From a virus (Duplodnaviria > Caudoviricetes), in the IMG/VR virus record IMGVR_UViG_3300049564_000023, positions 1 through 35,747 of that record: a DNA stretch of 35,747 nucleotides; one strand, 5' to 3'. The notes beneath the pieces were generated by a model. The model had not been told where the DNA came from. It worked only from the letters and a program-made list of their open reading frames with translations, and made no database searches. Of the stretch, positions 7,897 through 34,993 are shown piece by piece; positions within the stretch are counted from its first letter, which is position 1, and each line of letters starts with the position of its first letter. The position numbers and the translations under genes were made by a program.

Positions 7897-8157
7897 ATGA
7901 GCGAACCTGCCGCGCAGAGACGCGAACTGCTCTGCGAGCGGTGCGACCGCGAGCATCCTGTCTGGTTCGCGCCGAACGCGGTCTGGAACGCCGTCGTCCG
8001 TCCCAACCCCGACCAAGGCGATGAGTTCGCGTTCCTCTGCCCGCTGTGCTTCATCGTGCTCGCGGAAGAGCGGGGCATGGTGCCTTCGGGCTGGATGGTC
8101 GCACCCGCTGATTCTGTGACCACAACGATGAGTTGGAGGCTTGATGCAGCGGCCTGA
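7897..8157 (+). CDS. Small Cys-rich (CxxC...CxxC) hypothetical protein
   Basis: CERC...WFAPNAVWNAV...LCPLCF; carries the CCT-GCC-GCG start-proximal motif. Confidence 0.75.
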   Translation: MSEPAAQRRELLCERCDREHPVWFAPNAVWNAVVRPNPDQGDEFAFLCPLCFIVLAEERGMVPSGWMVAPADSVTTTMSWRLDAAA

Positions 8158-8392
8158 GAAGGACATTGCCGCGCAGACCCGTGAGTCGGGGACGTTCTCC
8201 GATGGCCGCGTCTACACCCTCGTTCGTTGGAACGGCTCAAACGACTGTGGGGTCTGCTACTTCGAGGAGGATGAAATCTCGCGCACCGTGAGCATCGACA
8301 CCTGGAACCACAGTGCGGAGTCCGCCCAGCTTACGGTCGAGCAAGCGCGATCGCTTGCAGCGTTTCTGATGCAGTTTTGCGAGGCCAAGTGA
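8144..8392 (+). CDS. Hypothetical protein
   Basis: GGAGG SD before ATG 8144; carries the ATT-GCC-GCG motif; coupled to the next gene by GTGA. Confidence 0.7.
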   Translation: MQRPEKDIAAQTRESGTFSDGRVYTLVRWNGSNDCGVCYFEEDEISRTVSIDTWNHSAESAQLTVEQARSLAAFLMQFCEAK

Positions 8393-20611: not shown

Positions 20612-22122
20612 GCCATCGCCGCCAAGGGGACGTCCGCGAACTCGTTCATGTGCTGGGCACGCCAGACCGCGAGCGCCATCGCCGGCACCGCGTCGATCGG
20701 CATCCGCGGATCGATCTTCCGCACCCGACGCAACTCGGAACCGAAGCCGCGCTCCACCCCCGTGTTCGCGACATGTGAACGGATCACCGGGTCGCCCGTG
20801 TGCCGCAGCTGACCCTCGGACGCGAGGTTGAACAGCGCCTGTAGAGCGTCCCGCATCGCCTTTGACGAAGGCTCGACCGGGAAGATGCACCGCTCAGCCA
20901 GACGCGCGTCGACGATCTCCATCGACCGCTCGAGGTAGCGCGGATCGTAGGCGGCCTCCTCGACCTGGAACTCGTCGAAGCGATCGAGGATGAACGCCTC
21001 CACATCGTCGAAGTCGATCTTGCCGCTGTCGTGAAAAACGTGCGCCTCGATGTCCTTGCGCACACTGAACACCCTGGCCTCAACGGTGACGATTCCTTCA
21101 TCGTCGCAGTCGGCCCAGGCGATCACCGTCGTGTCCCAGGTACGCGAACCGTCACCACCCAGACAGACGAACGAGCCAGCCTTGATCGGTTCCCCGGTCG
21201 CGAGCGCGTCCCAGTCGCGAAGGTCGAGGAATGGATCCTTGCCCTCGTCGAGCGTGGGGATGTTGCAAGTCATCCGCCGCCAGTGCGACTCCGTCATCGT
21301 CGGGTCGGCGAGCTTCTCGGCGAGCGACTGCCGCGTAATCGACTTGAGCGGATTCGCCGCCTTGACCGCGACCGCATCGAGGATGTCTGCCTCCGACCGC
21401 ACAGCCCAGTCATGAAGAACGACCTTGTCGGTGGCGTAGCGGATGAACGCGCCATGCTTGTCGACCTTGCTGGCCTCCGCCTTGATCTTGTCGCGGGTCG
21501 TCTCGAACTCATGGCCCGGCTCTCCCGCGGTCGAGATCACGATCAGCTTCGCACCCTGCACCGAACCCCAGCCCGAAAAGACGTCGCGCACAAAAGCCCG
21601 CTGGAACGGCTCCAGCGTGACGAACTCGCCACTGTCAAGCACAAGCGTCTTGCACCAGGCGTCAAAGTGCTTCAGCGTGAACGGCAACCTGCCGGTCCGC
21701 TTGTTCAGCTTCCCACGCCACGTCCGATGTAACGCCAGATCCTTGTGGCGATGGAGCTCGTCCAAGAACCCGAACGGCCACGGAATCACACCATCCGCGG
21801 CACCAGCATCAGCCGCATGAACCTCGATCTGGCCAACAGTCTCGCCACGCTTCGTATCCCCCGGCCGGCGCAAATGGATCTGCCGATAGCCGTCAAAACA
21901 CTCGAACCAAAAACCCTCATCATCCGGCTGATGGAGCCCCGACCTGGACACGAAACCCTTCATCTGCCGATACATGATCCGCGCCTGATCCCGCGTCGAC
22001 GCCGCAACCGGGATCGACGCCTCACCACCAAACCTCAACCCATACAAGCCGAGCGCCGCCAGCAGCGTCGTCTTGCCGTTCCCCTCCGGCAACACCAGCC
22101 ACAACACCTGAGGCTCAGCCAT
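20608..22122 (-). CDS. terL: Terminase large subunit
   Basis: Walker A PEGNGKTT, Walker B FLDELH, coupling motif ISTAG, nuclease GGDGS..WD, YDP, IDAVPAMALA. Confidence 0.95.
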   Translation of the reverse strand: MAEPQVLWLVLPEGNGKTTLLAALGLYGLRFGGEASIPVAASTRDQARIMYRQMKGFVSRSGLHQPDDEGFWFECFDGYRQIHLRRPGDTKRGETVGQIEVHAADAGAADGVIPWPFGFLDELHRHKDLALHRTWRGKLNKRTGRLPFTLKHFDAWCKTLVLDSGEFVTLEPFQRAFVRDVFSGWGSVQGAKLIVISTAGEPGHEFETTRDKIKAEASKVDKHGAFIRYATDKVVLHDWAVRSEADILDAVAVKAANPLKSITRQSLAEKLADPTMTESHWRRMTCNIPTLDEGKDPFLDLRDWDALATGEPIKAGSFVCLGGDGSRTWDTTVIAWADCDDEGIVTVEARVFSVRKDIEAHVFHDSGKIDFDDVEAFILDRFDEFQVEEAAYDPRYLERSMEIVDARLAERCIFPVEPSSKAMRDALQALFNLASEGQLRHTGDPVIRSHVANTGVERGFGSELRRVRKIDPRMPIDAVPAMALAVWRAQHMNEFADVPLAAMA

Positions 22123-22474
22123 CGACCCGCGAGAGTGAGTTTCGCGAAAACCTGGTCATGGGTATTTCAGCGGCGGGTTCACGATGCTTGCCCACCCCCC
22201 CACGGTCACGTTTGCTCGAGTTGCATGGACGGCAGAGAACGCGGAGGTTGTGTGATGCGTTGGTACCGCCTTTGGAGAGCGGGACGATGTGGTCGAGGGT
22301 GAGGTCGCTCGTGCTACCGCAGTGGGCGCAGCGTGGTGAGCGTGCGATGAGGCGTCGGCTAAGTCGAGCCCATGCTGAGGTGTAGCCGCGTTGGGTGGGT
22401 GTGCCGCGTCTTCGTTCTGTGTTGGGGCAGCGGCCTTGGTGGTGGGTGTTGCAGTGGGTGCAGTAGCGGAGCAC
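22115..22474 (-). CDS. Packaging-associated HNH endonuclease (HK97 gp74-like)
   Basis: RGY..AW.RL...CAHCG...DHIVPLSKGGTN...NLRVLCRPCNSSK, directly before terL. Confidence 0.9.
   Translation of the reverse strand: MLRYCTHCNTHHQGRCPNTERRRGTPTQRGYTSAWARLSRRLIARSPRCAHCGSTSDLTLDHIVPLSKGGTNASHNLRVLCRPCNSSKRDRGGVGKHREPAAEIPMTRFSRNSLSRVDG
22130..22205. other. Probable cos / packaging-initiation region
   Basis: G-run (minus GGGGGGGTGGG at 22201-22191), palindrome TTTCGCGAAA at 22140-22149, and an abrupt switch from C/A-rich to G/T-rich plus strand. Confidence 0.5.
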
Positions 22475-22477
22475 GAG

Positions 22478-22491
22478 TTGTTCTTCGGCTA
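22478..22491 (-). promoter_or_regulatory. Late promoter-like motif TAGCCGAAGAACAA (leaderless spacing to GTG 22474)
   Basis: Exact 14-mer; intergenic; GCCGAAGA ends 7 nt before the HNH start. Confidence 0.78.
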
Positions 22492-22508
22492 GCGCTCTGC
22501 TTAGTTCG

Positions 22509-22748
22509 TCAAGCGGGGTTCTTCTGGAGCCACCTCTTGCGAATGCCCTCGACTTCCTCGCCGGACATTTTCCCGGGGAACGTGAGGATCATCGTGGGCT
22601 TGAGTAGTTCGTTGATCGCGTTCTGGTAGGTGCGCCAAGCGGCGACCTCGGATACCGGCATGTCGAGTTGAGCGAGCGTGGTGCCCTTGTCACAGATCGT
22701 GATCTTGACGTGCAGCGTCTTGGGTGCCGGTGTTGGCGTGTCGGTCAT
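22509..22748 (-). CDS. Hypothetical protein (79 aa)
   Basis: GGAG SD, ATGA overlap. Confidence 0.65.
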   Translation of the reverse strand: MTDTPTPAPKTLHVKITICDKGTTLAQLDMPVSEVAAWRTYQNAINELLKPTMILTFPGKMSGEEVEGIRKRWLQKNPA

Positions 22749-22885
22749 TGGTCTCCAATCCGAGCAGTGAGTTCGCTACGCAGCTGCTCTTGTCTGAGGC
22801 GGATGGTGCGCAGGGGGAGGTGGAGGATGATTGCGATTTCGCGTTCGGTGAAGCCCAAGTAGATCCTGAAGCTCACTTCCTTCAG
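22745..22885 (-). CDS. Sigma-70 region 4-like HTH segment, in the +1 frame relative to the region 2 ORF
   Basis: LKEVSFRIYLGFTEREIAIILHLPLRTIRLRQEQLRSEL. The frame is open back to ATG 23212; mode of translation unknown. Confidence 0.65.
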   Translation of the reverse strand: MKEVSFRIYLGFTEREIAIILHLPLRTIRLRQEQLRSELTARIGDQ

Positions 22886-23237
22886 TGTCCAGAGGCTCGA
22901 TGGTGTGAGGGTGTTCGGGTCGATTGTCGAGGGTGGTGAAGGTGGGTGGTGTCCGTTCGTGGATGCGGTCTTTGAAGACCCAGCGTGTGCGGTAGTTGCC
23001 GCGTTTCCAGTCGACGATGAAGCGGTTAAGGCGGGCGCCGGCGGTGTGGCTAAAGGTGCCGAGCTCAGGGTTGTATTTGCCGTTTTGGCTGAGTTCCCAG
23101 ATGAATGTGATGCAGTCGGCGAGGAGGTCTTCGTGGTCGAGGTAGCCGTATTCGGTGAGGCCGCTGCGTTGGATGGCGTGGTCGGCGAAGGCTTCGACGT
23201 CGCGGATGTCATGGAGTGTGAGCCTTTGTTGGAGCAC
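22776..23237 (-). CDS. Phage sigma-70-family factor, region 2(-3) part
   Basis: EDLLADCITFIWELSQNGKYNPELGTFSHTAGARLNRFIVDWKRG matches the region 2 D-L...YDP..G.F.TYA...I...I.D..R pattern. Start GTG 23237 is tentative. Confidence 0.75.
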   Translation of the reverse strand: MLQQRLTLHDIRDVEAFADHAIQRSGLTEYGYLDHEDLLADCITFIWELSQNGKYNPELGTFSHTAGARLNRFIVDWKRGNYRTRWVFKDRIHERTPPTFTTLDNRPEHPHTIEPLDTEGSELQDLLGLHRTRNRNHPPPPPAHHPPQTRAAA

Positions 23238-23451
23238 GCTTTGAGGGTAGGGGGCGGGGTGGATAGCGTGAGATGTAGGTGCCGGCTGGGTGGTTGTGGA
23301 GTTGGTCGGGTGTGAGTTGGCGTATTTGGCGGCGGGTCTCTTGGTAGTCGGCGGGGGTGAGGAGGGCGAGGGTGCGGAGCCAGTCGGCGTTGTCGGTGAG
23401 GAGTGTGGGTTGGGGTGGGTCGTGGTCGCGGGCGTGGTGGAGGTGGGGCAT
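23209..23451 (-). CDS. Hypothetical protein (80 aa)
   Basis: ATG 3 nt after the helicase stop. Confidence 0.55.
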   Translation of the reverse strand: MPHLHHARDHDPPQPTLLTDNADWLRTLALLTPADYQETRRQIRQLTPDQLHNHPAGTYISRYPPRPLPSKRAPTKAHTP

Positions 23452-23454
23452 GGC

Positions 23455-24786
23455 TTAGAAGGGGATGTCGTCGTCGGGTCTTGGTGGTCGTGTGACTGGG
23501 TCCGGGGCTGGTGGTTCCCCGTAGGGGAAGCCACCGCCAGGGTCCCGGTCGAGGGTCTCAGTCAGGGTCTCGGTCGGGTCCTGGTCGTACCTGGTCGCCA
23601 AACCCGCATGGTTATGCGTAGTGGTTTGGGACCCAGTCGGGACCTGGTCGTCGTGTTGGTTCGTGTACCTAGTCGGGTCCCGGTCAGCTGAATCTTGGGC
23701 CTCTCGGTAGGGGTGAATGGCCTCGACGAGTTTGGCCCCACGAGCTCCGTCGATGGAGCGGAAGTAGTGCTCGCGGACGAGTGTGTCGATGGCGATTCGC
23801 GCGTATTTTCGGTTGCCTCCGACAGCGTCTAGGACGGTGTTACGGCTGACCGGTTCGGAGCAGCTTTCGACGAAGATGGAGGCGCGTTCCATCTTGCCTG
23901 TGGGCCGGAAGACGTCAGGATGAATCTCAGTTTCGTGTTCGACTCGTTCCCATGCTCCGAAGGTGCCCGCACCGATCGTCATTTCCCAGCGGCCGGAGTT
24001 GCCGAAGCGGCTGTCGGTGATCTCGAGGCGTATGCGGCCGACGTTGTCGAGCCCGAACTTCTCTACGGTTTCGAGGACGAACAGGATCTCGTTCAGGTCA
24101 CCTTTGCTGCTGGCGCCGCGGCCGCGTCTTGGCTCGTTGTGGCCGGTGTTGTCGAGGATGAGGGTGGCGATCGAGACTTGGAATAGTGGGTCGATAAGGG
24201 CGGCCATGAAGTCGGCGTAGTCGTCGGACGAGTTTTCTTCGAGGCCGAGGTCCGAGAGATACATGCGTTGTGAGTCAAAGATGACGAGGTCGCTGCCGGC
24301 GCATAGGGCTGCGAGGTCGGCGTGGTCGTCTTTGTGGAAGCGTGGGAACTCGTAGTAGTGAAGGCTGTGCGCGAGTGTTTCTTGGGCTTCATTGTCGAGT
24401 TCGCGGCCCTGGATAATCGCCTCGAGTCGTGAGGCGTAGAGGTCTGCGCCATTCTCGCGGTCAAAGATTGTGGTGTGGCTGCCGGCGAGTGCCATGTCCA
24501 CGATGTGGACGAGCGCGGCGATGGATTTGCCGACTTTCTTGGGTGCTGCCCAGTGGTGTCGTTTGCCTCGGCGGAGCATGTATTCCGAGGCAGGCAGGTA
24601 GTCGGCCGGCGGGACGCCATTGCGAATCCTGTCGAGGAGGTTGACGCGGCGGTCGTGGACGCGCTCGATGAAGCTGCCCGGCAGGGCGCCGTTTGGCGCT
24701 GTCTCTAGGTCGTTGTCAGCGTCGAGAAGGGCGCGCAGGGTGGCTTCGTCGTCTTGTGGGAACAGGTCAGCCATCGCCTCGGTCAT
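23455..24786 (-). CDS. RecA-fold (AAA_25 / RepA-like) replicative ATPase / helicase
   Basis: Walker A AAPKKVGKS, Walker B LVIFDS, ILDNTGH...RGRGASSKG; possible wHTH; acidic DDDIPF tail. Confidence 0.82.
   Translation of the reverse strand: MTEAMADLFPQDDEATLRALLDADNDLETAPNGALPGSFIERVHDRRVNLLDRIRNGVPPADYLPASEYMLRRGKRHHWAAPKKVGKSIAALVHIVDMALAGSHTTIFDRENGADLYASRLEAIIQGRELDNEAQETLAHSLHYYEFPRFHKDDHADLAALCAGSDLVIFDSQRMYLSDLGLEENSSDDYADFMAALIDPLFQVSIATLILDNTGHNEPRRGRGASSKGDLNEILFVLETVEKFGLDNVGRIRLEITDSRFGNSGRWEMTIGAGTFGAWERVEHETEIHPDVFRPTGKMERASIFVESCSEPVSRNTVLDAVGGNRKYARIAIDTLVREHYFRSIDGARGAKLVEAIHPYREAQDSADRDPTRYTNQHDDQVPTGSQTTTHNHAGLATRYDQDPTETLTETLDRDPGGGFPYGEPPAPDPVTRPPRPDDDIPF
23540..23685. 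repeat. Iteron-like array of about 9 direct 10-11 bp repeats around a hairpin; candidate origin
   Basis: GGGTCCCGGTC x2, GGGTCTCAGTC, GGGTCTCGGTC, GGGTCCTGGTC, GTACCTGGTC, GGGACCCAGTC, GGGACCTGGTC, GTACCTAGTC; central CCAAACC-CGCAT...ATGCG...GGTTTGG at 23598-23629. Confidence 0.7.
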
Positions 24787-25028
24787 CGCTTGGCGAAGAC
24801 CCAGTCATCGTCCACGCTGGACCATCGCGCCTTGAGTTCTCCACTGAGGCAAAGGCCGACCATGGCTGCCTCGATAAGAGCGCTTTCACAGAACGAGCAG
24901 AACGCTTGGACTTCGCCGGTTGATAGTCCGCGCGGGTGTTCGCCCTCGAGGACGGCGGAGACGAGCGCCTGGTAATCGTCTGTGTCTAGTTCTGGAAGCC
25001 GGGCTAGGACCGCGGCAGCCTTGCTCAT
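24783..25028 (-). CDS. Hypothetical protein (MSKAAAVL...)
   Basis: GGAG SD; ATGA overlaps at both ends. Confidence 0.7.
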   Translation of the reverse strand: MSKAAAVLARLPELDTDDYQALVSAVLEGEHPRGLSTGEVQAFCSFCESALIEAAMVGLCLSGELKARWSSVDDDWVFAKR

Positions 25029-25282
25029 GGCGTCTCCAGTCCGAGTAGGTGTTGGAGTTTGCGGTGGCGCGCGTCGATGAGGCGGATCGCCTCCGCTACC
25101 GCACCTTCGTCGCCCGGAGCCGTGGCCGCTGCGAGGGCAGCGGCGGTCGGCTCGAGCATCAGCACCAACCACTCGACATGGCCGGCGGCGCGCTCTGCGA
25201 TGTGGTCGCCTGGGTAGCGGCGGCGTAGCCGGCCGATGTCGGCTGCTAGTTCGTTGAGTCGTTGTGTTTGTGCCTCTGCCAC
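25025..25282 (-). CDS. Hypothetical protein
   Basis: AAGGA SD; helical sequence; coupled to the next gene. Confidence 0.65.
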   Translation of the reverse strand: MAEAQTQRLNELAADIGRLRRRYPGDHIAERAAGHVEWLVLMLEPTAAALAAATAPGDEGAVAEAIRLIDARHRKLQHLLGLETP

Positions 25283-25352
25283 TTGCCCGCGTCCTTGTCC
25301 TCGGAGTTCGCCGTGTCGCCGTCTGTCGGCCCTTACGGTTGGTCAACTCGGG

Positions 25353-25985
25353 CTACGGGGGCATGGCGTCAGCGAGCCCGGCCGACTCGTCGACGACGCA
25401 CCGGAACCGTGGCTCGGCGGCTTCGTCGATGCGGCCTACACCCGCCATCCAGCACGACTGAGGCGCATAGCTTGTGAGCTCCGTCCTCAGCAGTGGCCGC
25501 CCGTCCAGGCCTTTGCCGAACGTCCAGCGTTTGCTGAGGATCGTCGCGATCTCATCAAGATCACTCGGAATCCATAGGTACGCTTCGGCGCCTGCGCCGG
25601 CGAGTGCGTCGAGCCATTCCTTCTGGGCCGGGGTTGGCTTGCCCTTGTCGCGCTTCAGTTCGGCGAAGATGATGCGGTCGCGGACGAGGACGCGATCCGG
25701 GAATCCGGACTGGCTGCCCTTGCTGCGGAGGGTGTGGTAGCAGAGGCGCCAGCCGAGGATAGGTGCCAGGCCTTTCTTGCTTCCGAATAGGAGGGCGTCC
25801 CATTCGCGCTCGAGCATGTCGTCGAGGAGGGGAGACGCGGCAGCCCGATCCTCAGCGCGGGAGCGCGGCGCGGAGGCTGCTACCCCCGCGCCGCCGTCAC
25901 CAGGAGAAAGGACAGACTGGTGTTGCTCACCGCCCGGCGTAGCACCGCCGGAACCAACGATCTCAACCTGAACACGACGACTCAT
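25353..25985 (-). CDS. VRR-NUC domain nuclease
   Basis: GFPDRVLVR..IIFAELKRDKGKPTPAQKEWL; start position uncertain. Confidence 0.88.
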   Translation of the reverse strand: MSRRVQVEIVGSGGATPGGEQHQSVLSPGDGGAGVAASAPRSRAEDRAAASPLLDDMLEREWDALLFGSKKGLAPILGWRLCYHTLRSKGSQSGFPDRVLVRDRIIFAELKRDKGKPTPAQKEWLDALAGAGAEAYLWIPSDLDEIATILSKRWTFGKGLDGRPLLRTELTSYAPQSCWMAGVGRIDEAAEPRFRCVVDESAGLADAMPP

Positions 25986-26032
25986 AGCGGACTCCTCTCG
26001 GCAGTAGCGGCAGACTCGCCGTGCCCGGTCAC
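25982..26032 (-). CDS. 16-aa linker ORF MTGHGESAATAERSPL (minimal cassette)
   Basis: GGAG SD; GTGA and ATGA overlaps; contains TCT GCC GCT. Confidence 0.5.
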   Translation of the reverse strand: MTGHGESAATAERSPL

Positions 26033-26190
26033 GCGACCAAGCTCCTCAGCCACTCGCTCGCTCCGAACTTCTCCTCGAACTCGCGCACCCACTTCATCTG
26101 ACGACGACGGCGCAGCAGGCCAGGACGCTCGGTGAGGATCGTGCGGGCGTAAGCCTGCTCCTCCATCCCGTGACCCTGCGCGGCACTCAA
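26029..26190 (-). CDS. Hypothetical protein (53 aa)
   Basis: TTGA overlap; TTG AGT GCC GCG CAG start. Confidence 0.6.
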   Translation of the reverse strand: MSAAQGHGMEEQAYARTILTERPGLLRRRRQMKWVREFEEKFGASEWLRSLVA

Positions 26191-26414
26191 CTCGTGGCCA
26201 GCTTCCATGCCTTCTCCTTGATGTAGACGAGGGCGTTGGCCGACCACCGCTCGATGATCGCCTCGTTGATTTCGCGCCACTCGCCGGTCGGCCCGTAGGC
26301 CCGCAGCGCCATCGCGTAGTCCACGGCCACGTCGTCGCGAGTGCAGGTCGGGTCGGCGATAGCGGCGAGCACGTCCGTCCGCCAGAAGTCATCGCTGATC
26401 GCGGCAGAGGTCAT
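26187..26414 (-). CDS. Hypothetical protein (75 aa)
   Basis: ATGA overlap; ATG ACC TCT GCC GCG. Confidence 0.7.
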   Translation of the reverse strand: MTSAAISDDFWRTDVLAAIADPTCTRDDVAVDYAMALRAYGPTGEWREINEAIIERWSANALVYIKEKAWKLATS

Positions 26415-26578
26415 GCGACCACTTCCTTCCCACACTTCGGACACGGCTTCGGCTGGATGCCGAGCCGGTGAACGACCCGCCGACCCCGCCAGCCGCATGA
26501 CGCCCACTGAGAGCAAGCGACTCCCAGCACAATCGGCCCTGCCGAGCGCAAAGGCGTCGTAGCGGCAGAATCGCTCAC
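26411..26578 (-). CDS. Zinc-ribbon-like protein (55 aa)
   Basis: Not in the ORF track; C....SCGWRG...CPKCG; GTG AGC GAT TCT GCC GCT. Confidence 0.7.
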   Translation of the reverse strand: MSDSAATTPLRSAGPIVLGVACSQWASCGWRGRRVVHRLGIQPKPCPKCGKEVVA

Positions 26579-26889
26579 AGCCCCGCCCTGTCAGCGATCC
26601 AATCGACCGGCGCGAAGGCAGCCTCGGTTGCCCGGTCGAGCAAGTCCCCAGCTACCTCCATTCCCGATGCCATGCGATGACCAACGCTCGGACTGACGAC
26701 GCCCACCGGAAGGGACGCGGCCCACACAATCTCAAGCGGAAGCAGGACTAGAAAGACCACAGGAAGTACGAGCAGCACGCCGATCACCATGCAGGCCATC
26801 GACGCGAGCAGCGCCAGCAGCTTCACTGGCAACAGAAGCAGCGAGCGGGTGTTGTCCCACCGGGTCGCGGCAGAACGGCTGTCAGTCAT
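26575..26889 (-). CDS. Membrane protein
   Basis: Long hydrophobic stretch; GAGG SD; TCT GCC GCG at codons 6-8. Confidence 0.75.
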   Translation of the reverse strand: MTDSRSAATRWDNTRSLLLLPVKLLALLASMACMVIGVLLVLPVVFLVLLPLEIVWAASLPVGVVSPSVGHRMASGMEVAGDLLDRATEAAFAPVDWIADRAGL

Positions 26890-27277
26890 CCTCAGCCAGC
26901 TTTCTCAGCGTCTCTCCGTGCTCGCGGAGCACGCGATCAGCCACAACATCAAGCCACCCGTGCTCCTTCGCAAGCTCCTCGCCGCGCTCAATGTCAGCCG
27001 GTGCCACGTTCTGACCACCGTCGTAGAGTCCGTGCAGCTTGCGGCCAATGTCGAACGCCTCCCATGGCGGACGGCGAGTGCCGATGTAGCGAGCGCCGTT
27101 CGGCACCCACTCGCGGTACTGCATTGAGAGGTAGAACCGGCGCAGGAACCACGGCAGCGAGTCGATCAGCCAGTGCCACGGATCGCGGAAGCGATCGAGG
27201 CGCGGCCTCACGTCGGTCGTGTAGTCGAACCACGGCCGTCGCTGCGTCTGCGCGGCAGAGCGATCAGGCGAGCCCAC
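26882..27277 (-). CDS. Hypothetical protein (131 aa)
   Basis: GGAAGG upstream; TCT GCC GCG at codons 7-9. Confidence 0.7.
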   Translation of the reverse strand: MGSPDRSAAQTQRRPWFDYTTDVRPRLDRFRDPWHWLIDSLPWFLRRFYLSMQYREWVPNGARYIGTRRPPWEAFDIGRKLHGLYDGGQNVAPADIERGEELAKEHGWLDVVADRVLREHGETLRKLAEDD

Positions 27278-27437
27278 GGCGAGCCTTCCACGAGTCCGTG
27301 CCGCCCGCGTCCTTCACGGCGGCACAGAGCTTGACGTACTCCCTGGTGCCGATGAGGTAGCCGGTCGCCTCGCACTTGGCGAGCACGGCCTCGGCAGCCT
27401 TCAAGAGCTGACCCTGCGCGGCAGACGACCTATCCAC
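27264..27437 (-). CDS. Hypothetical protein (57 aa)
   Basis: Not in the ORF track; GGAG SD; GTG GAT AGG TCG TCT GCC GCG. Confidence 0.65.
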   Translation of the reverse strand: MDRSSAAQGQLLKAAEAVLAKCEATGYLIGTREYVKLCAAVKDAGGTDSWKARRGLA

Positions 27438-27579
27438 AACGCTTCTCCCATAGCTCGCAAGCCCACAGGAAGCCGAGCGTCCGCCAGTCGATCAGGAAGC
27501 GACGGAAGCCCTTGATCTCCGTGATGCTTCGTCCGCCAAAGAGCAGGCTAAGAACGAGATCCTGCGCGGCAGACTTCAT
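27430..27579 (-). CDS. Hypothetical protein (49 aa)
   Basis: Not in the ORF track; ATGA overlap; ATG AAG TCT GCC GCG. Confidence 0.65.
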   Translation of the reverse strand: MKSAAQDLVLSLLFGGRSITEIKGFRRFLIDWRTLGFLWACELWEKRCG

Positions 27580-27815
27580 ACGGCCTTCCTGTCGGTCGTC
27601 TCCGCCGGGTCGTAGTGGCGCAGCAGCCGCCGGTTCACGGCGAGGATGTGCGCGACCTCCTCAGCGTGATACGGCGCGAACGTCGTCGCGCTCGGCGTGT
27701 CCGCACCCTGTAGAAGTTCGGTCGAGCGCCTGAGTGCGTCGAGCAGTGGAGCGTGACGGCGGCGGAACCACCAACCGCGCACCCTCGCGGCACTCGACTC
27801 GTTGCACTCAGGCAT
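27576..27815 (-). CDS. Hypothetical protein (79 aa)
   Basis: ATG 27815 overlaps the upstream gene; AGT GCC GCG at codons 8-10. Confidence 0.65.
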   Translation of the reverse strand: MPECNESSAARVRGWWFRRRHAPLLDALRRSTELLQGADTPSATTFAPYHAEEVAHILAVNRRLLRHYDPAETTDRKAV

Positions 27816-27960
27816 CGCGCACCGTCCACGGGATATTCGCGCGGTCGAGGATTTCCACGAAGGCGTCGATTCCGTCCTCGCCCTCGATGGGCCAATGCCA
27901 CCGCTCGCCGTTGCTCGGGAGGGTGAAACTGACCACAACGCGCTTGGTCGCGGCAATCAC
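27808..27960 (-). CDS. Hypothetical protein (50 aa)
   Basis: Not in the ORF track; GTGA overlap; GTG ATT GCC GCG. Confidence 0.65.
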   Translation of the reverse strand: MIAATKRVVVSFTLPSNGERWHWPIEGEDGIDAFVEILDRANIPWTVRDA

Positions 27961-28289
27961 GCTGCCACCGCCTTCTCAACGAGCCGCCACAGCCGCTCGT
28001 TCTCGCGCTCCAACCATTCGATGTACTGCTCCTGCGACGCGCGCCCTGCAGCACGGGAGCCGTTCAGCGCGGCATGAGCGTCGTCCAGCCGGATCAGGAA
28101 CACGCCGCCCACCTTCTCCGCTGGGAGGCGTCCAGCCTTGATCCAGCGGCGCACCGTGCGCTCCGCGACGCCCAGAGCTTCACCGGTCTCGCGGGCGGAA
28201 TAGCGCGTTGCCACAGGCCGCTGCTCGTCGTCGCTCCACTCGAAGCCCGGCGGAAACTCAGTAGCGGCAGGCTGATCGTGGCCGCTCAT
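27957..28289 (-). CDS. Excisionase-like (MerR / HTH_17) DNA-binding protein with coiled-coil tail
   Basis: YSARETGEALGVAERTVRRWIKAGRLPAEKVGGVFLI; start ATG 28289 (ATGA overlap). Confidence 0.85.
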   Translation of the reverse strand: MSGHDQPAATEFPPGFEWSDDEQRPVATRYSARETGEALGVAERTVRRWIKAGRLPAEKVGGVFLIRLDDAHAALNGSRAAGRASQEQYIEWLERENERLWRLVEKAVAA

Positions 28290-28606
28290 TCGCACCGCCA
28301 CACGGGGAACGCCCCCGGCTCGTCCTTGCCGCACTCGACCCAATACATGCCGTCGTACATCACGGCTGCGGGGTCATCGGGCGCGTGCCGAGCGTGCCGC
28401 GAGTAGCACGACACCTCGATGTACGGGATGTCGGTGAACTTGGAGAAGTAGGTCATCGCCTGCGACCGCTTCGGGTAGTGCTCGCGGGCGAACCACGCCT
28501 GACCATCCTCGCTCCACGCACCCTCGCGCTCCATGAGCACGGGCTCGCTCGTCGCGGCAGACTGGTCGCGATTAATCGACCGTTGTCCGTCGTTACGAAT
28601 ACTCAC
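28286..28606 (-). CDS. Hypothetical protein (106 aa)
   Basis: GTGA overlap with recombinase 2; GGAG SD. Confidence 0.75.
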   Translation of the reverse strand: MSIRNDGQRSINRDQSAATSEPVLMEREGAWSEDGQAWFAREHYPKRSQAMTYFSKFTDIPYIEVSCYSRHARHAPDDPAAVMYDGMYWVECGKDEPGAFPVWRCE

Positions 28607-29493
28607 TTCTCCAATTCCTCCATCCGCCGGCGAATGTCGATCGCCTTGGTGTGGACGTAGACCCGCTGCGTCGTCCGGAAGTCCGCGTGCCTCAGCAGGA
28701 AGCCGACGTCATCCATTGCGAGGCCACGGCGGCGCCATTCAGTGGCGTAGGTGTGCCGCGTGACGTGCATGTTCTTGTACGGGATGCCCGCGGCCTCGAT
28801 CGAGCGCTTCCACCACATGTGCATCGAGGCGTCGACGAGCGCTCGATCGTGACAACGCCTTGGGTGGCCGCCTGGTCGGCAGTACCAGATGAAGTCGTCT
28901 TCGTTCAGCCCCTCGAGCAGGAAATACTCAGCGAGCCTGGTGACGAGCTTGTTCTCCATCGGCACCACGCCAGCCACGCCGCCCTTCGCGCCCTCGACGA
29001 CATGGAGCTCCGCGTGTTCGAGGTCGACGCGCTTGACGCGGAGGTTGCGGGCTTCGGCCTTGCGTAGTCCGGTGCCAAGGAGAAGCGCCATGAGCGTCCC
29101 GTCCGGTTCCGGTAGCGAGCAGAGGATCTTGCACTCGGCGTCCGTGAAGACCTCGACTGGCGGATGCTGCGCCTGCTTGACCGTCGGCACATGCACCATC
29201 GGGTTGAACGGGATCCGCTTGGTGCGATAGGCCCAGCTGAAGAGGTTGTGGAAGCAGGAGCGCCGGATCTGGCGGCTGGCCGGCTTCGCCTCGTCGATGA
29301 TCCCGATGATGTGCTCGTCGGTGAACTCCGGCAGCGTCAGCTCAGGCCAACGGGCGAGCAGCTTGTCGGAGGTGAGCCGGTAGCCCTTGATCGTGAGCGG
29401 ACTGAACGCGCTCAGGCGCAGCCACTCGAGCCACTCATCGCGCACTTCGAGAGCAGTCGGCTCGACCTGACGACGCCTCCAAAACGGCCTCAT
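28603..29493 (-). CDS. Tyrosine recombinase 2 (XerC/D-sized, no arm-binding domain)
   Basis: TGLRKAE, GAKGG, HVTRHTYAT, LRH, TTQRVY: full catalytic set. Confidence 0.95.
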   Translation of the reverse strand: MRPFWRRRQVEPTALEVRDEWLEWLRLSAFSPLTIKGYRLTSDKLLARWPELTLPEFTDEHIIGIIDEAKPASRQIRRSCFHNLFSWAYRTKRIPFNPMVHVPTVKQAQHPPVEVFTDAECKILCSLPEPDGTLMALLLGTGLRKAEARNLRVKRVDLEHAELHVVEGAKGGVAGVVPMENKLVTRLAEYFLLEGLNEDDFIWYCRPGGHPRRCHDRALVDASMHMWWKRSIEAAGIPYKNMHVTRHTYATEWRRRGLAMDDVGFLLRHADFRTTQRVYVHTKAIDIRRRMEELEK

Positions 29494-30803
29494 TCCGGCG
29501 GCCCTTCATAAAACCCCTGGACCGAAGGGAATCCAAGCCTGTTACCGTGCGACTTGGACGAGAACGAGGGTTCGAATCCCTCCTTCTCCGTTGGCGGGTT
29601 GGATTCCAACGATTTGGGAGAATCCAAGTGGCTGGTGGACGCCAAATGATCCACTCTTGAGGCGCTGTTGCTCTCGCGCTCCGGGCTAGCACCGGAGTCA
29701 GCAGCCACTCCCCAGTTGAGGCCGCGTACCGTCTCCATGCTCCTGCGCCTGTCCAACCGGCGGAGGTACACCATCGTCGTCTCCACCCGCGAGTGGCCCA
29801 TCAGCTGTTGCAGCGAGAAGAGGTGGTCTTCGCCTTTGGTCTCGAGGTAGAAGACCGCGAACGCGGCTCTTAGGGCGTGGACGGTGGTCTTTACTCCGGC
29901 GCGTTCTGCGACGCGGCGGATGAGGCGCCAGACGACGCGGTCGTCTCTGTCGCCTGGTCGCCGTTGGACGGCGTTGCCGGGAATCAGGTACGGGTCAGAA
30001 ACGGCCTGAGTTCTGCGAGGGCGGCGCTTGCCCGCTTCGCTGCCCATCCGATCTGCTGCATCTTTGCTGTGAGTGTCACCGTGTGCGCTTGTATCGCGCG
30101 GATCTGGCGAAGCTGCTGGTTGTCCATCGTAGCTCCCATCGTATTCGTTGTAGACGCCTGCGAAGATCGCGGCGTCCAACACATCAGCCAGCGGATCGGC
30201 GACGGGCTTGACGATGACCTTGCCGCCCTTCTCCCGGAATCTGAGGGTTCTGGCGAACGGGTCATAGTCGCTCCTCCTGATCGTCGCCAACGCATGACGC
30301 CGAGCCCCGCTATAGACAGCCAGGCTGACGGCGATCTTCTCCTGCCACCCCTCCGCCGCCAACAACATCAGCTTCACGTCCTCGCTCGAGACCGACACGA
30401 CGTTGTCGTTCTCGTAGGCGGGCGCGAGCTTCGGCCTACGAATCCGCTCAGCCGGATCCCTGGTGACGAGGTCTTCTTCGTGCAGCCACTTGAAGAAGCA
30501 GCGCACAATCGTGACCGCCTGCGCGATCGTCGCCGGCCTGTTCTCACCATGGCCCGTCTTGCGGTTCCGCTGGTACCCGTCAAGGAACACGCGCAGCATG
30601 GAGGCGGTGAGTTCTTCGACGTCGTGGTGCGGGTACGTGTCCGCGAGCTTGTGCAGGGTGCGCCTGTAGGAGGCGATGGTGCGTTGTGTGCGGCCTTGCC
30701 TCGCGAGCTCGCCGAGGTAGAGGTCCGCTGCCTGTGAGGTAGTCATGACGCGGACCCTGAAACTTGGCTCGTGCTCGGTCAAGGTTTCGGCGGCTACGGT
30801 CAT
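29490..30803 (-). CDS. Tyrosine recombinase 1 (probable integrase; attP-like core in its 3' end)
   Basis: SGARR, EKGG, HALRAAFA, MGHSRVETTMVY. Start taken as ATG 30803 because the upstream extension overlaps the Rpf-like gene. Confidence 0.93.
   Translation of the reverse strand: MTVAAETLTEHEPSFRVRVMTTSQAADLYLGELARQGRTQRTIASYRRTLHKLADTYPHHDVEELTASMLRVFLDGYQRNRKTGHGENRPATIAQAVTIVRCFFKWLHEEDLVTRDPAERIRRPKLAPAYENDNVVSVSSEDVKLMLLAAEGWQEKIAVSLAVYSGARRHALATIRRSDYDPFARTLRFREKGGKVIVKPVADPLADVLDAAIFAGVYNEYDGSYDGQPAASPDPRDTSAHGDTHSKDAADRMGSEAGKRRPRRTQAVSDPYLIPGNAVQRRPGDRDDRVVWRLIRRVAERAGVKTTVHALRAAFAVFYLETKGEDHLFSLQQLMGHSRVETTMVYLRRLDRRRSMETVRGLNWGVAADSGASPERESNSASRVDHLASTSHLDSPKSLESNPPTEKEGFEPSFSSKSHGNRLGFPSVQGFYEGPPE
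29565..29590 (+). other. attP-like core: 3' part of a tRNA (Ser-like)
   Basis: C-GAGGG-TTCGAAT-CCCTC-CTTCTCC-G is a T-arm, acceptor 3' strand and G discriminator, with no 5' half. Flanked by GAATCCAAG x2 and the palindrome GTTGGATTCCAAC (29598-29610). Confidence 0.85.
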
Positions 30804-30807
30804 GCGG

Positions 30808-31149
30808 TCACCCCACGCCGCAGACGCCAGCCGTTCCCCATTCGCGCCAGCTGCGACCGTCCCAGATGTAGGTGCGCCATGCGATGAAGGTCTGCTGTGC
30901 CGGTGTCGCCAGGTCGGCGCGTGTCGGCCAGCCGCGCAACGGGTGTGGGTGCGCGACATGGAACGCCCAGGTTCCGGGCAGGAATTGGTAGGCGCCGTAG
31001 TAGCCGTTGCCGGTGTTGGTGTGCCATTGGCCGCGCGATTCGTGGTAGCGGATGCAGGCGGCTTCGCGGACCCAGTAGGACGGGTAGCCGTGGTGATGGT
31101 GGTGCGGACTTGTTAGCGATATGACGAGTGCGAGCGTCCAACCTAGGAT
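30808..31149 (-). CDS. Resuscitation-promoting-factor (Rpf)-like transglycosylase; no ATG/GTG/TTG start (ATC proposed)
   Basis: Not in the ORF track: ILGWTLALVISLTSPHHHHHGYPSYWVREAACIRYHESRGQWHTNTGNGYYGAYQFLPGTW...RADLATPAQQ...W..W. Confidence 0.85.
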   Translation of the reverse strand: MLGWTLALVISLTSPHHHHHGYPSYWVREAACIRYHESRGQWHTNTGNGYYGAYQFLPGTWAFHVAHPHPLRGWPTRADLATPAQQTFIAWRTYIWDGRSWREWGTAGVCGVG

Positions 31150-31745
31150 GCCTCAGCCGCTCCGTCAGGGGACATGGCCTCGCCGTTTCGGCGGCGTGCT
31201 TGGTGTCCGCCGTTCGTCCGGCGGTAGTCAGGATTTGCAGCGCGGTAGCGCTGTTTCGCTCTTGTCTGGCAGGCGCGACATGACTGATGGATGCCGCCCT
31301 CGCGAATCTCGCGGTGTCGCATACCGCGCGTGAAGTTCTCGGGCGATTGCCACCGCTCGCCATTCGCGCAGTCCAAATGGATGCAACGAACAGCAGCCAG
31401 GTTGCCTAACTCGTCGAATCGCAGCCGCTCGCGCAGTGCGTCACTGCGGCAGCGCGCGCACAGCATTCGCCCGTCAGGGTTGTGCTTCTTCTTTCCTCCG
31501 ATGAGGCGCATTGCGGGACCGCCGCATTCCTCGCAGCTGCCCGTACGCCAGCGCTTGTTATACGCAAGCTCCCGTTCCTTCCACCCCGGAGAGATGACGC
31601 GATAGATTGCGTTCTTCGTCACGCCATATGCGGCTGCAAGGCTGGCGACGGATTCGCCCGCCGCATGGCGGCTGGCCGCTTCCTCGTGGTCGAACTTGCG
31701 CACATAGACGCGGTTCTTCTCGGCGCTGAAGGTAATGAGGCTCAT
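31143..31745 (-). CDS. HTH plus Cys-cluster (zinc-binding) protein
   Basis: AGESVASLAAAYGVTKNAIYRVI; CEECG, CARC, CRAC; start ATG 31745 (GAGG SD, ATGA overlap). Confidence 0.75.
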   Translation of the reverse strand: MSLITFSAEKNRVYVRKFDHEEAASRHAAGESVASLAAAYGVTKNAIYRVISPGWKERELAYNKRWRTGSCEECGGPAMRLIGGKKKHNPDGRMLCARCRSDALRERLRFDELGNLAAVRCIHLDCANGERWQSPENFTRGMRHREIREGGIHQSCRACQTRAKQRYRAANPDYRRTNGGHQARRRNGEAMSPDGAAEAS

Positions 31746-31942
31746 GCGTCCTCGAGCGTCTGGGCTGCGCTCGGCGTTCCGTCCAAAGCGGTGTCTGCGA
31801 TGTCCCACATCCGCATTCCGTATCCGTCCCCAACCGGAGTAGCCTGGATCCGTTTCAGCGCGTCGCGTAGCCGCTGACATTCGGCTTCCATCAGCCGGAT
31901 GCGTTCCTCATAGAACGCGGGACTCGTCGTCCGATTGCTCAT
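31742..31942 (-). CDS. Hypothetical coiled-coil protein
   Basis: GGAGG SD, ATGA overlaps. Confidence 0.7.
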   Translation of the reverse strand: MSNRTTSPAFYEERIRLMEAECQRLRDALKRIQATPVGDGYGMRMWDIADTALDGTPSAAQTLEDA

Positions 31943-32184
31943 GCGTCCTCCACGTCGAGCACGCCAGTTGAGTGCGCTCGTTCACGGTTCAGCCGCGCTG
32001 CTTCCAGCCGGTCAATCTCTCGGCGCAGCTGGGCTTCGAGGTCACGGTCTCGGCGATGCCATGAGATCGACCACCACCACAACGTCAGTCGAACGTGCGT
32101 ACCGAAGCCGCGCGAGACGACGAGAGAGAGCGCGCGGGTGTGCCAGTCGCGCTCACGCCGGGTGTGCCAGCGCTGGCTGCTCAT
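31939..32184 (-). CDS. Hypothetical protein
   Basis: ATGA overlaps at both ends. Confidence 0.6.
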   Translation of the reverse strand: MSSQRWHTRRERDWHTRALSLVVSRGFGTHVRLTLWWWSISWHRRDRDLEAQLRREIDRLEAARLNRERAHSTGVLDVEDA

Positions 32185-32294
32185 TCGTCCGCGTCCCTCG
32201 ACTGCCACTCGCACTCCTCGACGATGTCCGTGTAGACGAAGACGCAGAGAACGAGAAACGCTGAGAGGAGCACGATGGCGAGGGTGAGCGCCAT
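32181..32294 (-). CDS. Small single-TM protein (37 aa)
   Basis: Not in the ORF track; TGATG and ATGA overlaps; MALTLAIVLLSAFLVLCVFVY... Confidence 0.55.
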   Translation of the reverse strand: MALTLAIVLLSAFLVLCVFVYTDIVEECEWQSRDADE

Positions 32295-33040
32295 CAGAAC
32301 GGCACGATCTTGAACTCGCCGATGTAGCCGCCCTCAGCCCACTGTTTGAGGTCCGCCCCGAGGATGGAAAGCTGCGCCTCGCTCAACCCGTCCAGCGAAT
32401 CGGCGTTCCAGTTCTTCTTGACGGTCGCGAGGATCTCGTCGGCGGTTTTCAGTTCGCCGCGTGCCTCGTCGGCTTCGACGGACATCTCCGTGATCCGCTT
32501 CCGCATCGCCGGCGCCTTGTCTTTCTTCGCCGTTGACTTCCGTTCGGGCTGCGGCATCTCCTCCGCTGGTGTCGGGTTGAACCCGGCCAGCTGCATCACG
32601 AACCCGAGCGGCTGACGTAGCGCCTTCGACGTCGCCCTGGTTTGCGCCATCGAGCGGAGTGCGTAGTCGTCGCGGTTCTTCCAGGTGTTCTCGCTGCGAA
32701 GGCACTCGGCTTCGGCGGCTCCGACGAGGTCTCCGGCACGGGTGCGCGCTTCGACCCGGGCTTCCCAGCCGTTCTCGAGTTTGCGTGTCCAGGTGCAGAT
32801 GGGGAAGACGCCGAGCATTGAGCCGAGCAGCGTCCACCCTTCGACTTTGACGTGTTCGCTGGGGCCGATCGTGACGGCGAGTTTCTGCGACCGGATCACG
32901 TCGACCAATGGCCCGGCGGCGCGCTTGGCGGCTTCAACGACTTCGGCCGGGTCGGTGGTGCCGAAGAGTGTCGGCGTGACGTCCTGGCGCGCTGGCAGGT
33001 CGTCCTCGTAAACGACGATGGGCTCGAGCTCGGCGCTCAT
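32294..33040 (-). CDS. Putative single-strand annealing / recombination protein
   Basis: HVKVEGW...EARV...GAAEAEC...W...ALRSMAQTRATSKALR...TPAEEM resembles Rad52/RecT-type cores; ends in VPF. Confidence 0.6.
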   Translation of the reverse strand: MSAELEPIVVYEDDLPARQDVTPTLFGTTDPAEVVEAAKRAAGPLVDVIRSQKLAVTIGPSEHVKVEGWTLLGSMLGVFPICTWTRKLENGWEARVEARTRAGDLVGAAEAECLRSENTWKNRDDYALRSMAQTRATSKALRQPLGFVMQLAGFNPTPAEEMPQPERKSTAKKDKAPAMRKRITEMSVEADEARGELKTADEILATVKKNWNADSLDGLSEAQLSILGADLKQWAEGGYIGEFKIVPF

Positions 33041-33300
33041 GCGGTCTCCCATTCCTGTAGTAGGTGGGGCGCGTACATAAGCGCCCATGCCCGGTGCGCC
33101 TTCGCAATCGCCAGCGTCAGTTCCCGGCTCAGTGGTTTGCTCGGCTCGGCGTCCCCGCCCCGCATCGGGGGTCTCTCATGCGTGCTTCCATCGCCGTCAG
33201 CAACGGGGGAATGCGGGATAGAGGACGCCGAGCCCAACAAACACACTGGGCATGGGCTGAACGGGGCGGGCTGCTCGCGGCCGCAGCGGCGGCAGATCAT
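33037..33300 (-). CDS. Small Cys-rich protein
   Basis: MICRRC...CPVC; ATGA overlaps. Confidence 0.6.
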   Translation of the reverse strand: MICRRCGREQPAPFSPCPVCLLGSASSIPHSPVADGDGSTHERPPMRGGDAEPSKPLSRELTLAIAKAHRAWALMYAPHLLQEWETA

Positions 33301-33536
33301 GTAGAGCTCCGATGCCAAGGGCCGCACCAGCGCCGGTGATGGAGCGGCACATGGCAGATCCGCCAGTAGCGGTTGCCCTGCTGGTCGTGGCCGGGCTGGC
33401 GGTAGGTGTAGGCGACGGTCGGCCTAACGCAGCCATGCCGCCCCGGACTACGAGGACAGATCGCGCCGGCCGTGCTTGTGAACGCCAGAGCCGCGAGAAT
33501 CGCGACGAGCACCGCGGTAGCGGCGAAGCGAGTCAT
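33297..33536 (-). CDS. Small secreted protein
   Basis: Signal-peptide-like N-terminus ending AGA; four Cys; ATGA overlaps. Confidence 0.65.
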   Translation of the reverse strand: MTRFAATAVLVAILAALAFTSTAGAICPRSPGRHGCVRPTVAYTYRQPGHDQQGNRYWRICHVPLHHRRWCGPWHRSST

Positions 33537-33784
33537 GCGACCGCCTCTTCCGGTTCAGGTTCGTCCTCTGTCTCGCCTTCGAAGAACCAGGAGACAGGCA
33601 GATCGGCGAGTTCGGCGATCTGGCGGACGTACCGGAGGCTGGGCTTGGTGACGCCGCGTTCCCAGCGGGAGATGGTGACGGGTTCGGGGTGACGGCCGGT
33701 GCGGCTTCGCAGCGCGACAGCGAGTTCGAACTGGGTTAGGCCGAGGTTGTCGCGTGCTTCGCGGATGCGGTCACCGACACTCAC
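33533..33784 (-). CDS. Cro-like XRE HTH regulator
   Basis: IREARDNLGLTQFELA...TISRWERG..KP; divergent from the repressor; first gene of the early operon. Confidence 0.9.
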   Translation of the reverse strand: MSVGDRIREARDNLGLTQFELAVALRSRTGRHPEPVTISRWERGVTKPSLRYVRQIAELADLPVSWFFEGETEDEPEPEEAVA

Positions 33785-33786
33785 AG

Positions 33787-33804
33787 GCCTAGACAGTACT
33801 AGGC
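33787..33804. promoter_or_regulatory. Operator-like palindrome GCCTAG-N6-CTAGGC
   Basis: Perfect 6-bp arms that bracket the cro -10 hexamer exactly. Confidence 0.75.
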
Positions 33805-33821
33805 TCGGATGCTACTGTCAA
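33793..33821 (-). promoter_or_regulatory. Housekeeping-sigma early promoter, essentially leaderless
   Basis: TTGACA-N17-TACTGT-N8-GTG(33784). Confidence 0.88.
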
Positions 33822-33888
33822 ATCTAGCCTAATGCCTAGTACAGACTCGGTATCGACAAAGACTAGACGCCTCAGGCAGCTTCTCCTG

Positions 33889-34263
33889 ATGGCGCTGGGC
33901 CTAGAAGAGCTCGGCAAACGCATACACCAGGCGCGCGAGGAAGCCGGTCTAACTCAATCGCAGCTGGCTGATCGGCTGGGGCTTGGGCATCCACAATCGA
34001 TCAGCCGCTACGAGCGCGGCTTGACCGAAGTGCCCTATAAACGGCTGGTGCGGATCGCGGAGGAGACGGGTAAGCCGCTCAGCTTCTTCCACCCGGATAG
34101 TCCGCCTGAGACGGTGGAGTCTGCACCACTCGCAGATCCGGCGACCTTGGCGCTGGCCGAACAGATCCTGGCTGAGCTTCGCGCTCTTCGAGTCGCCGTA
34201 CAGCGTCTCGAAGGCCCGCCAACTCAAGCAGGCACGCCTCGAGAGCGTGGTGCGTCAGGTTGA
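33889..34263 (+). CDS. Immunity repressor, XRE HTH
   Basis: LGKRIHQAREEAGLTQSQLADRLG...ISRYERG; C-terminal amphipathic helix; no S24 peptidase domain; alternative start at 33832. Confidence 0.88.
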   Translation: MALGLEELGKRIHQAREEAGLTQSQLADRLGLGHPQSISRYERGLTEVPYKRLVRIAEETGKPLSFFHPDSPPETVESAPLADPATLALAEQILAELRALRVAVQRLEGPPTQAGTPRERGASG

Positions 34264-34330
34264 CGGTTCCGCACTCCGTCGTTCCTAGAGCGTCGGGGTC
34301 GCCCCTCCTCGTGAGCGGACAATAGTCCAT
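34079..34330 (-). CDS. Possible antisense ORF overlapping the repressor 3' half
   Basis: Encodes LLELAGLRDAVRRLE, mirroring the repressor's LAELRALRVAVQRLE; directly downstream of the lysis operon. Confidence 0.3.
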   Translation of the reverse strand: MDYCPLTRRGDPDALGTTECGTVNLTHHALEACLLELAGLRDAVRRLEEREAQPGSVRPAPRSPDLRVVQTPPSQADYPGGRS

Positions 34331-34376
34331 CGGGACTGATCGCGGCTATGACCTATATGGGTTAGAGCGAGAAGAC

Positions 34377-34811
34377 CTAACCCGCGATGACTTTGCCGTT
34401 GATGATGGCTGCGGCGTGCGCACCCCCGGCGAGCTCCAACGTCGTACACCGTTTCACATGGCGCAACCGGACCCAGGGCGTCCACAGGTTCCCGATGCCG
34501 GCACGCCACAGGTTGCCGCGCCGCTCGAGCCGGGCACGCACCGGCCTGGTCAGCCGCCACGGTTGGACGTGGCTTTTCGCGCCTGCGCCTCGGTTCCATT
34601 CGGCGTAGAGGAAGGCGTGACCCTTGGAGCCTGCGGCGACTCCTGCTTGGACCCAGCGGTGCGCGGTCGGTGTTTGGGCGCCGATCCAGACGGCTGCGGC
34701 GTCGGGTGAGGGTGCGACGGCCCAGGTGAGGGTGAGGACGACGGCGAGTTTGCAGCCCCAGTGCAGGCCGGGGTACAGGATTTGTACCGGCGGCACGAAG
34801 ATCGGAGGCAC
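34377..34811 (-). CDS. Hypothetical protein, weak resemblance to glutamic peptidase G1 motifs
   Basis: AAVWIG...WVQAG...LYAEW; last gene of the lysis unit. Confidence 0.55.
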   Translation of the reverse strand: MPPIFVPPVQILYPGLHWGCKLAVVLTLTWAVAPSPDAAAVWIGAQTPTAHRWVQAGVAAGSKGHAFLYAEWNRGAGAKSHVQPWRLTRPVRARLERRGNLWRAGIGNLWTPWVRLRHVKRCTTLELAGGAHAAAIINGKVIAG

Positions 34812-34813
34812 GG

Positions 34814-34984: not shown

Positions 34985-34993
34985 GGCGCCTCC

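Follow-up and report, generated by a model that had tools for sequence, protein, structure and literature searches.

The DNA analysed here, hereafter the window, is the whole of the virus record IMGVR_UViG_3300049564_000023 (35,747 nucleotides, ~64% GC), a phage record with direct terminal repeats that carries terminase, portal, protease and capsid genes; as a guess, its host may be an actinobacterium. On the minus strand, a run of genes proceeds from a cro-like gene through recombinase 1 (Int1) and recombinase 2 (Int2) to an array of small genes, a VRR-NUC nuclease and an AAA protein. The subject of this report is the small-gene array, in which consecutive open reading frames (ORFs) contain the word TGCCGC in frame near their starts, together with Int2, the tyrosine recombinase whose stop codon overlaps the start codon of the array leader. 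The features of the locus are given in Table 1.

As shown in Table 1, twelve consecutive, coupled ORFs of small, unrelated genes between 28606 and 25982 each carry a TGCCGC core. These cores, reported in the initial annotation together with further copies at 25837, 25012, 27319 and 28069, were all found on the minus strand at those positions. They had been placed at codons 2-16, and in 12/12 the T was the third base of a codon and the ORF start lay 1-15 codons upstream. The residue ending in this T varies as had been described, being Ser, Pro or Ile in the twelve and Ala at 25837 and 25012, and the T is fixed in a genome rich in G and C at third codon positions (third-position T is 5-11% in four large genes). 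One unit does comprise just 16 codons (26032-25982). The copies at 27319 and 28069, which had been called gene-internal, are present but share the frame of the other sites; among those assigned to a plus-strand island, an in-frame, start-associated position holds for 7908 and 8167 but not for 6319. None of the 12 site-to-site spacings from 28554 to 25837 is a multiple of 3. When positional enrichment was checked, TGCCGC was the top start-associated hexamer in the region. There were 14 minus-strand copies in 25982-28606, where the remainder of the strand would predict 1.3 (Poisson 1e-10, for a region chosen post hoc), and 77 copies on both strands of the window versus 45.4 +/- 6.3 in shuffled sequence, where 0/100 shuffles reached 77.

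Table 1. Features of the Int2 locus and related units in the window.
Feature	Coordinates	Strand	Remarks
Recombinase 1 (Int1)	29490..30746	-	21% identity to Int2
tRNA 3′-end-like stretch (T-arm stem and loop), likely attP core	29565..29590	+	Inside 3′ end of Int1
Recombinase 2 (Int2), candidate cassette recombinase	28603..29493	-	296-aa tyrosine recombinase; Pfam PF00589
Leader and first site, putative attI-like primary site	28554..28606	-	15 codons, two ACGAC-like repeats 24 nt apart, then TGCCGC; from leader alignments
Gene 1	28286..28606	-	Site 28554-28559; no family
Gene 2	27957..28289	-	Site 28264-28269; HTH_17, excisionase-like
Gene 3	27808..27960	-	Site 27950-27955
Gene 4	27576..27815	-	Site 27787-27792
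Gene 5	27430..27579	-	Site 27566-27571
Gene 6	27264..27437	-	Site 27418-27423; second in-frame copy at 27319
Gene 7	26882..27277	-	Site 27252-27257
Gene 8	26575..26889	-	Site 26867-26872
Gene 9	26411..26578	-	Site 26562-26567
Gene 10	26187..26414	-	Site 26401-26406
Gene 11	26029..26208	-	Site 26180-26185; start ATG 26208 or TTG 26190
16-codon adaptor unit	25982..26032	-	Site 26007-26012; holds purine-rich ribosome-binding stretch for following gene
VRR-NUC nuclease	25353..25985	-	Fused in frame behind site 25837-25842 (codon 48)
Final start-associated unit	24783..25028	-	Site 25012-25017
Two orphan units	7897..8392	+	In-frame start-associated sites 7908 and 8167; inverted among tail genes

The motif was then counted in a pooled set of 18 array segments from the window and related records (48,984 bp, with bounds drawn from motif density). 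Of 173 copies, 124 were start-associated in the array frame, versus 15 and 6 in the other two frames. Start-associated T-GCC-GC occurred 124 times, versus at most 14 for each of 15 synonymous Ala-Ala spellings. The residue before Ala-Ala took 12 values, with Ser-Ala-Ala encoded at 66 of the 124 sites. Because the synonymous spellings stay rare and the preceding residue varies around a fixed third-position T, the signal lies in the nucleic acid and not in the peptide, as the initial annotation had argued. The 97 units of this set had a median length of 217 bp, and 87 of them were not multiples of three. In 71 the stop codon lay 3-21 nt before the next core, as expected if each stop overlaps the next start.

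Related loci were drawn from viral, metagenome and genome collections. Five motif scans gave 290 loci, of which arrays from 8 records were kept and the others dropped as isolated matches by density screens. L019, L018 and L033 were not counted as arrays; they have two copies after a distant integrase, out of frame with any start. Related phages carry the same type of array with other genes. In L002, Int2 is 94% identical to that of the window, the upstream genes differ and the array is wholly different, and its DNA resembles that of the window only up to the first core. Similarity of the leaders stops at the core also in the pairs G004/L007, L007/L151, G001/G007 and G001/G006. L151 and G007 have one unit in common, a 198-bp stretch of 99.5% identity that begins at -1 of one core and stops at +6 of the following one, within unrelated flanks; it is the first unit in one array and the third in the other. 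Another unit is shared core to core (-5 to +6) by G002 and G005 at 75%, and two units that stand side by side in G001 occur apart and in the opposite order in G006. Gene order is thus not fixed among relatives. Overall, 16 of 43 similarity ends fell within -5 to +6 of a core, a zone that holds 4.3% of the array DNA; this count omits the 5′ ends of leaders, one internal repeat and any end lying upstream of the array, and its rows are not independent. Among pairs at least 90% identical, 5 of 7 ends were at the core and 2 in the flanks, and the most recent exchanges ended at the core with 0-1 further matching bases. Families of left and right flanks were independent across the core (p 0.23, n=29), and their linkage within a flank was reached in 0/5000 shuffles. 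Ends at the core indicate that units have moved between phages and between positions, and every exchange preserved frame and coupling, in line with the cassette reading proposed earlier. One run, possibly the source, contains the region as assembled contigs, and no RNA data set was listed for it. No site-to-site joints were found at 90% or 80% likeness in these contigs, which drop rare variants, and this result carries no evidential weight.

Int2 has all the catalytic residues of a tyrosine recombinase: R144, K170, H243, R246 and H269 are invariant in 61 homologues and Y279 is nearly so, and its model shows the tyrosine-recombinase fold with a predicted local distance difference test score (pLDDT) of 90. 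Because the ratio of nonsynonymous to synonymous substitution (dN/dS) is ~0.06 against L002, by a rough count, the Int2 gene is judged to be under purifying selection. The protein lacks the IntI insertion, with a score of 54 bits in TIGR02249 (cut-off 265) and profile positions 208-212 spanning IntI4 residues 199-238, and it scores far below cut-off in the XerC and XerD models. A search gave 78 homologues at E 1e-20 or better, about 65 of them further Int2-clade proteins of 54% identity or above, and all fetched loci with an Int2 of at least 59% identity have a core about 40-50 nt behind the stop codon. In a quick tree of 47 rows made without bootstrap, Int2 and its relatives form one clade on a long stem (Shimodaira-Hasegawa-like approximate likelihood ratio test 100). 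Over 46 rows of that tree, with the mistranslated G007 row left out, an in-frame first site lay 37-49 nt after the Int2 stop in 9/9 clade members (one as TGCCTC) and in 0/37 other rows, and 15 of those 37 have a tRNA-like stretch in its place. In L151, Int2 is internally deleted and the leader is kept. A more distant integrase lies 0.7-0.95 kb upstream in 2/8 motif-found records (that of G006 is 37% identical), and no recombinase-like family is common to all array records. Among cultured phages and plasmids, Int2 gave only short weak matches, in 2 and 1 records respectively, and the genome collection yielded 2 distant Int2-related loci and no member of the Int2 clade. Other repeated cores beside more distant integrases were not clear, the top counts of 5-6 resembling background.

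Int1 is likely the prophage integrase, because it is only 21% identical to Int2 and has a tRNA-like stretch in its own 3′ end. We take this stretch to be a tRNA T-arm stem and loop; an ARAGORN scan of the window found no full tRNA, and Rfam gave 0 matches in the window, L002 and L146. Lysogeny does not depend on Int2, since the window carries Int1 as another integrase, which has a tRNA-like site of its own. Integration at that site would alter the C-terminus of Int1 and would separate the early promoter side from Int2, the array and the late genes. A terminator-like hairpin lies at 29516-29537 (minus strand), after the attP-like stretch and just before recombinase 2.

Beyond the six core bases, conservation of the site was weak: C at -1 in 77%, G-A at -8/-7, and A at +7 and +10. 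In the closer members, the Int2-linked leaders contain an ACGAC-like repeat twice, at a distance of 24 nt. A dyad score corrected with in-frame copies as control peaked at the core centre (p 0.027, 0.017 and 0.0005 for 4, 6 and 10 positions), and pairwise covariation between the flanks did not exceed noise. The core is TGCCGC, with no GTTRRRY box in the site profile. An attC-like hairpin was not found, since 106 native and 95 circle junctions (20 nt on each side) folded no better than their shuffled partners on either strand. Most relatives have not kept the palindrome that the initial annotation had pointed out near the first site. The site profiles are only suggestive of a 6-bp overlap or spacer between weak inverted arms.

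From one core to the next, a unit comprises the body of one gene with its stop codon, and then the opening codons of the next reading frame, whose start codon overlaps that stop. All cores are in one frame, and therefore any excision or insertion yields a coupled, in-frame gene. Judging from sequence comparison, the TGCCGC units are very probably site-bounded, frame-preserving cassettes, and Int2 is fairly likely to be their enzyme. The probable explanation of the whole is that units are exchanged at the in-frame core and that Int2 is the likely catalyst on double-stranded DNA. The crossover would occur within the core, which would serve as a 6-bp overlap required to match, and the weak inverted flanks would be the binding arms. 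The longer leader behind Int2 may be the preferred insertion site, and units would travel as circles. Int2 itself may have derived from tRNA-targeting prophage integrases and may often be lost, so that the arrays left behind would be frozen, or co-infecting phages would act on them in trans. New units would probably come from ordinary gene-boundary mosaicism at start codons, which would account for a second class of breakpoints. On balance, we lean towards a prophage integrase lineage repurposed as a gene-capture recombinase, which would shuffle small genes that lack promoters and are chained in translation, at a six-base in-frame core. This would be the integron invented independently in phages, with a pool of units across unrelated phages and possibly host chromosomes with the same core.

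Several observations weigh against exchange at the core by Int2. Not all breakpoints lie at the motif: 8/43 similarity ends lay in the flanks and 19/43 elsewhere, and in two G001/G006 units similarity breaks off 10-14 nt ahead of the core, shortly behind a start codon. Because of these latter ends, a second process, probably an ordinary gene-boundary one, is taken to act besides core exchange. No other array examined contained any of the 12 units of the window. The flanking arms are very degenerate, the raw dyad distance was no better than at control sites (0.39 versus 0.34), and the corrected dyad score has a 3-nt periodicity. The link between Int2 and the first site comes from the quick tree without bootstrap, and neighbouring Int2 loci share descent. 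An intact Int2-clade gene is present in only 2/8 motif-found records (G004 and G005), where it is the only tyrosine recombinase and could be the integration enzyme. The 99.5% identical unit is common to L151 and G007, both without intact Int2 at the array, and G001, G002 and G008, which have terminal repeats, gave no PF00589 or PF00239 match (CheckV 57, 58 and 42% complete). The assignment of Int2 as the enzyme is likely in that its clade always precedes a first site, but it has to face 6/8 motif-found arrays without an intact member, three of them without any tyrosine or resolvase-type recombinase. Arrays without Int2 fit loss of the enzyme and action in trans, by analogy with attC clusters that have no integron-integrase (CALINs); they also fit a host enzyme. 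With such an enzyme the cassettes would be real and site-specific, but a host or trans-acting recombinase would use TGCCGC, and Int2 would be a passenger, or an integrase inserting the phage via the leader site into such host sites. The six arrays without intact Int2 and its position as sole tyrosine recombinase in G004 and G005 would suit this account, which we hold unlikely given the separate integrase of the window with its tRNA-like site, the purifying selection on Int2 and its fixed distance to the first site in 9/9.

TGCCGC might instead be kept as an expression signal at the RNA or translation level, and shuffling would then be incidental, arising when the annealing protein of the phage recombines short homologies, as has been suggested for the promoter early stem-loop elements (PeSLs) of T4-type phages. 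Some breakpoints do lie at 7-10 nt shared stretches around start codons and not at the core, and arrays persist without a recombinase. A possible annealing protein is the unannotated 254-aa product of 32297-33058 (minus strand of the window). Its neighbours in the Atlas belong to unnamed viral clusters, and the Rad52/Sak-like ones among them are weak (scores 0.88) and no more than a lead; another unannotated upstream gene family is present in 7/12 records. However, no single candidate annealing protein is common to all array phages, no hairpin is favoured at junctions, and the position of the site ranges from codon 2 to 16, and 48. The ending of the most recent exchanges at the core also speaks against this account, and the homology of PeSLs is ~100 bp (PMC2839356), versus 6-7 bp here. 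We consider this account less likely still. A peptide origin, in which GC-rich codon bias and a common N-terminal peptide (xAA) would produce the motif, would be served by the many Ser-Ala-Ala sites, but it leaves the rarity of synonymous spellings, the 12 first residues in whose codons T stays fixed at the third position, and the ending of homology at the core without a cause, and it is very improbable.

Some units and their surroundings deserve separate description. Gene 2 has its second in-frame core (28069) between the HTH domain and the C-terminal part, and a domain fusion at this internal core is possible. The nuclease ORF starts at 25985 and reaches the core at 25837 after 47 codons; similarity to the nuclease gene of a relative begins there (25828). 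Short units like the 16-codon adaptor occur also in L002 and L121. Beside the orphan units in the plus-strand region 7897-8545 of the window, a short gene looks ribbon-helix-helix-like by eye. Among relatives, the array of G001 (L121, about 5000-2600, minus strand) consists of two segments parted by about 2.4 kb without start-associated sites, and L002 has a unit with a long tandem Ala-rich repeat (12700-13110). DNA methyltransferase-like genes were seen by eye in or just before the arrays of L001, L121 and L146. In L270 (minus strand), the 3′ coding end of the integrase (1925-1975) is duplicated a little downstream (1715-1770), as if an element had inserted there. A conserved non-coding element of ~55 nt lies upstream of arrays in L002 (~9940-9990), L121 (~10400-10455), L146 (~8990-9045) and L224 (~10155-10205). 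Its 19-nt core was found in only 4 viral records, all with arrays, and not in the window, and it had no Rfam match; it is possibly an antitermination or promoter element.

Mosaicism of phages at gene boundaries is usually ascribed to illegitimate recombination followed by selection. Here a fixed word sits at the boundaries in such a place that each exchange leaves a coupled gene that is expressed, and a directed mechanism of mosaicism thereby becomes directly testable with one 296-aa enzyme and short sites. If true, this would be a second route to integron-like behaviour, without attC or IntI and invisible to IntegronFinder-type searches. A recombinase that needs only a 6-bp in-frame core and tolerant arms could also serve as a tool for frame-preserving gene assembly.

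The phage array was compared with known systems. Like integrons and CALINs, including those of phages, it has a tyrosine recombinase beside a (here putative) primary site and co-oriented single-gene units, and arrays also occur without the enzyme (PMC4889954, PMC9892861). As in integrons, units move with their ends at the site and their order changes. A distinct leader site lies behind the recombinase in 9/9 clade members; it may be a counterpart of attI, at which insertion would be preferred. Unlike integrons, the phage array has no attC hairpin, GTTRRRY core or IntI insertion; its site is inside the coding sequence, its units are chained by stop/start overlap, and its recombinase gene is co-oriented with and coupled to the array. 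The array thus works like an integron but is not a member of that family. PeSLs are ~100-bp intergenic promoter/terminator elements with variable crossover points, no identified recombinase and demonstrated circular intermediates of the cassettes, and they resemble the array in that small orphan phage genes are shuffled at repeated boundary elements (PMC2839356). The array differs in its 6-bp in-frame core, in a crossover zone that is fixed, and in its linkage to a recombinase clade. No promoter-like site was found in 22000-35000 of the window, and no minus-strand terminator-like site within the array.

In pdif modules of Acinetobacter plasmids, double-stranded tyrosine-recombinase sites likewise bound mobile gene modules; these sites are similar to chromosomal dif, are acted on by the host's XerC/XerD, and lie in inverse orientation on either side of the modules (PMC9455709). 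The sites of the phage array, in contrast, all face one way and are GC-rich, degenerate and in frame. In shufflons (Rci/sfx) and Mycoplasma Xer1-type loci, the segments of a single gene family are inverted behind one constant 5′ end. There too in-frame fusions arise through a tyrosine recombinase acting at short sites inside coding sequence, but the sites of a shufflon are oppositely oriented and those of the phage array are in direct orientation only, and unrelated genes move between genomes, each unit with its own start. The start-associated sequences (SAS) of cluster K mycobacteriophages are also short motifs repeated near the starts of small non-structural phage genes; they are 13 nt long, nearly always outside ORFs and have a proposed regulatory role (PMC12699233). 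Unlike SAS, the motif of the array lies in frame behind the start codon and marks recombination breakpoints. The initial annotation knew of no description of the arrangement, and none was found in the open-access literature. Because each known family tested fails on its defining parts, the TGCCGC array is set apart as a real, undescribed, frame-preserving cassette system of uncultured phages.

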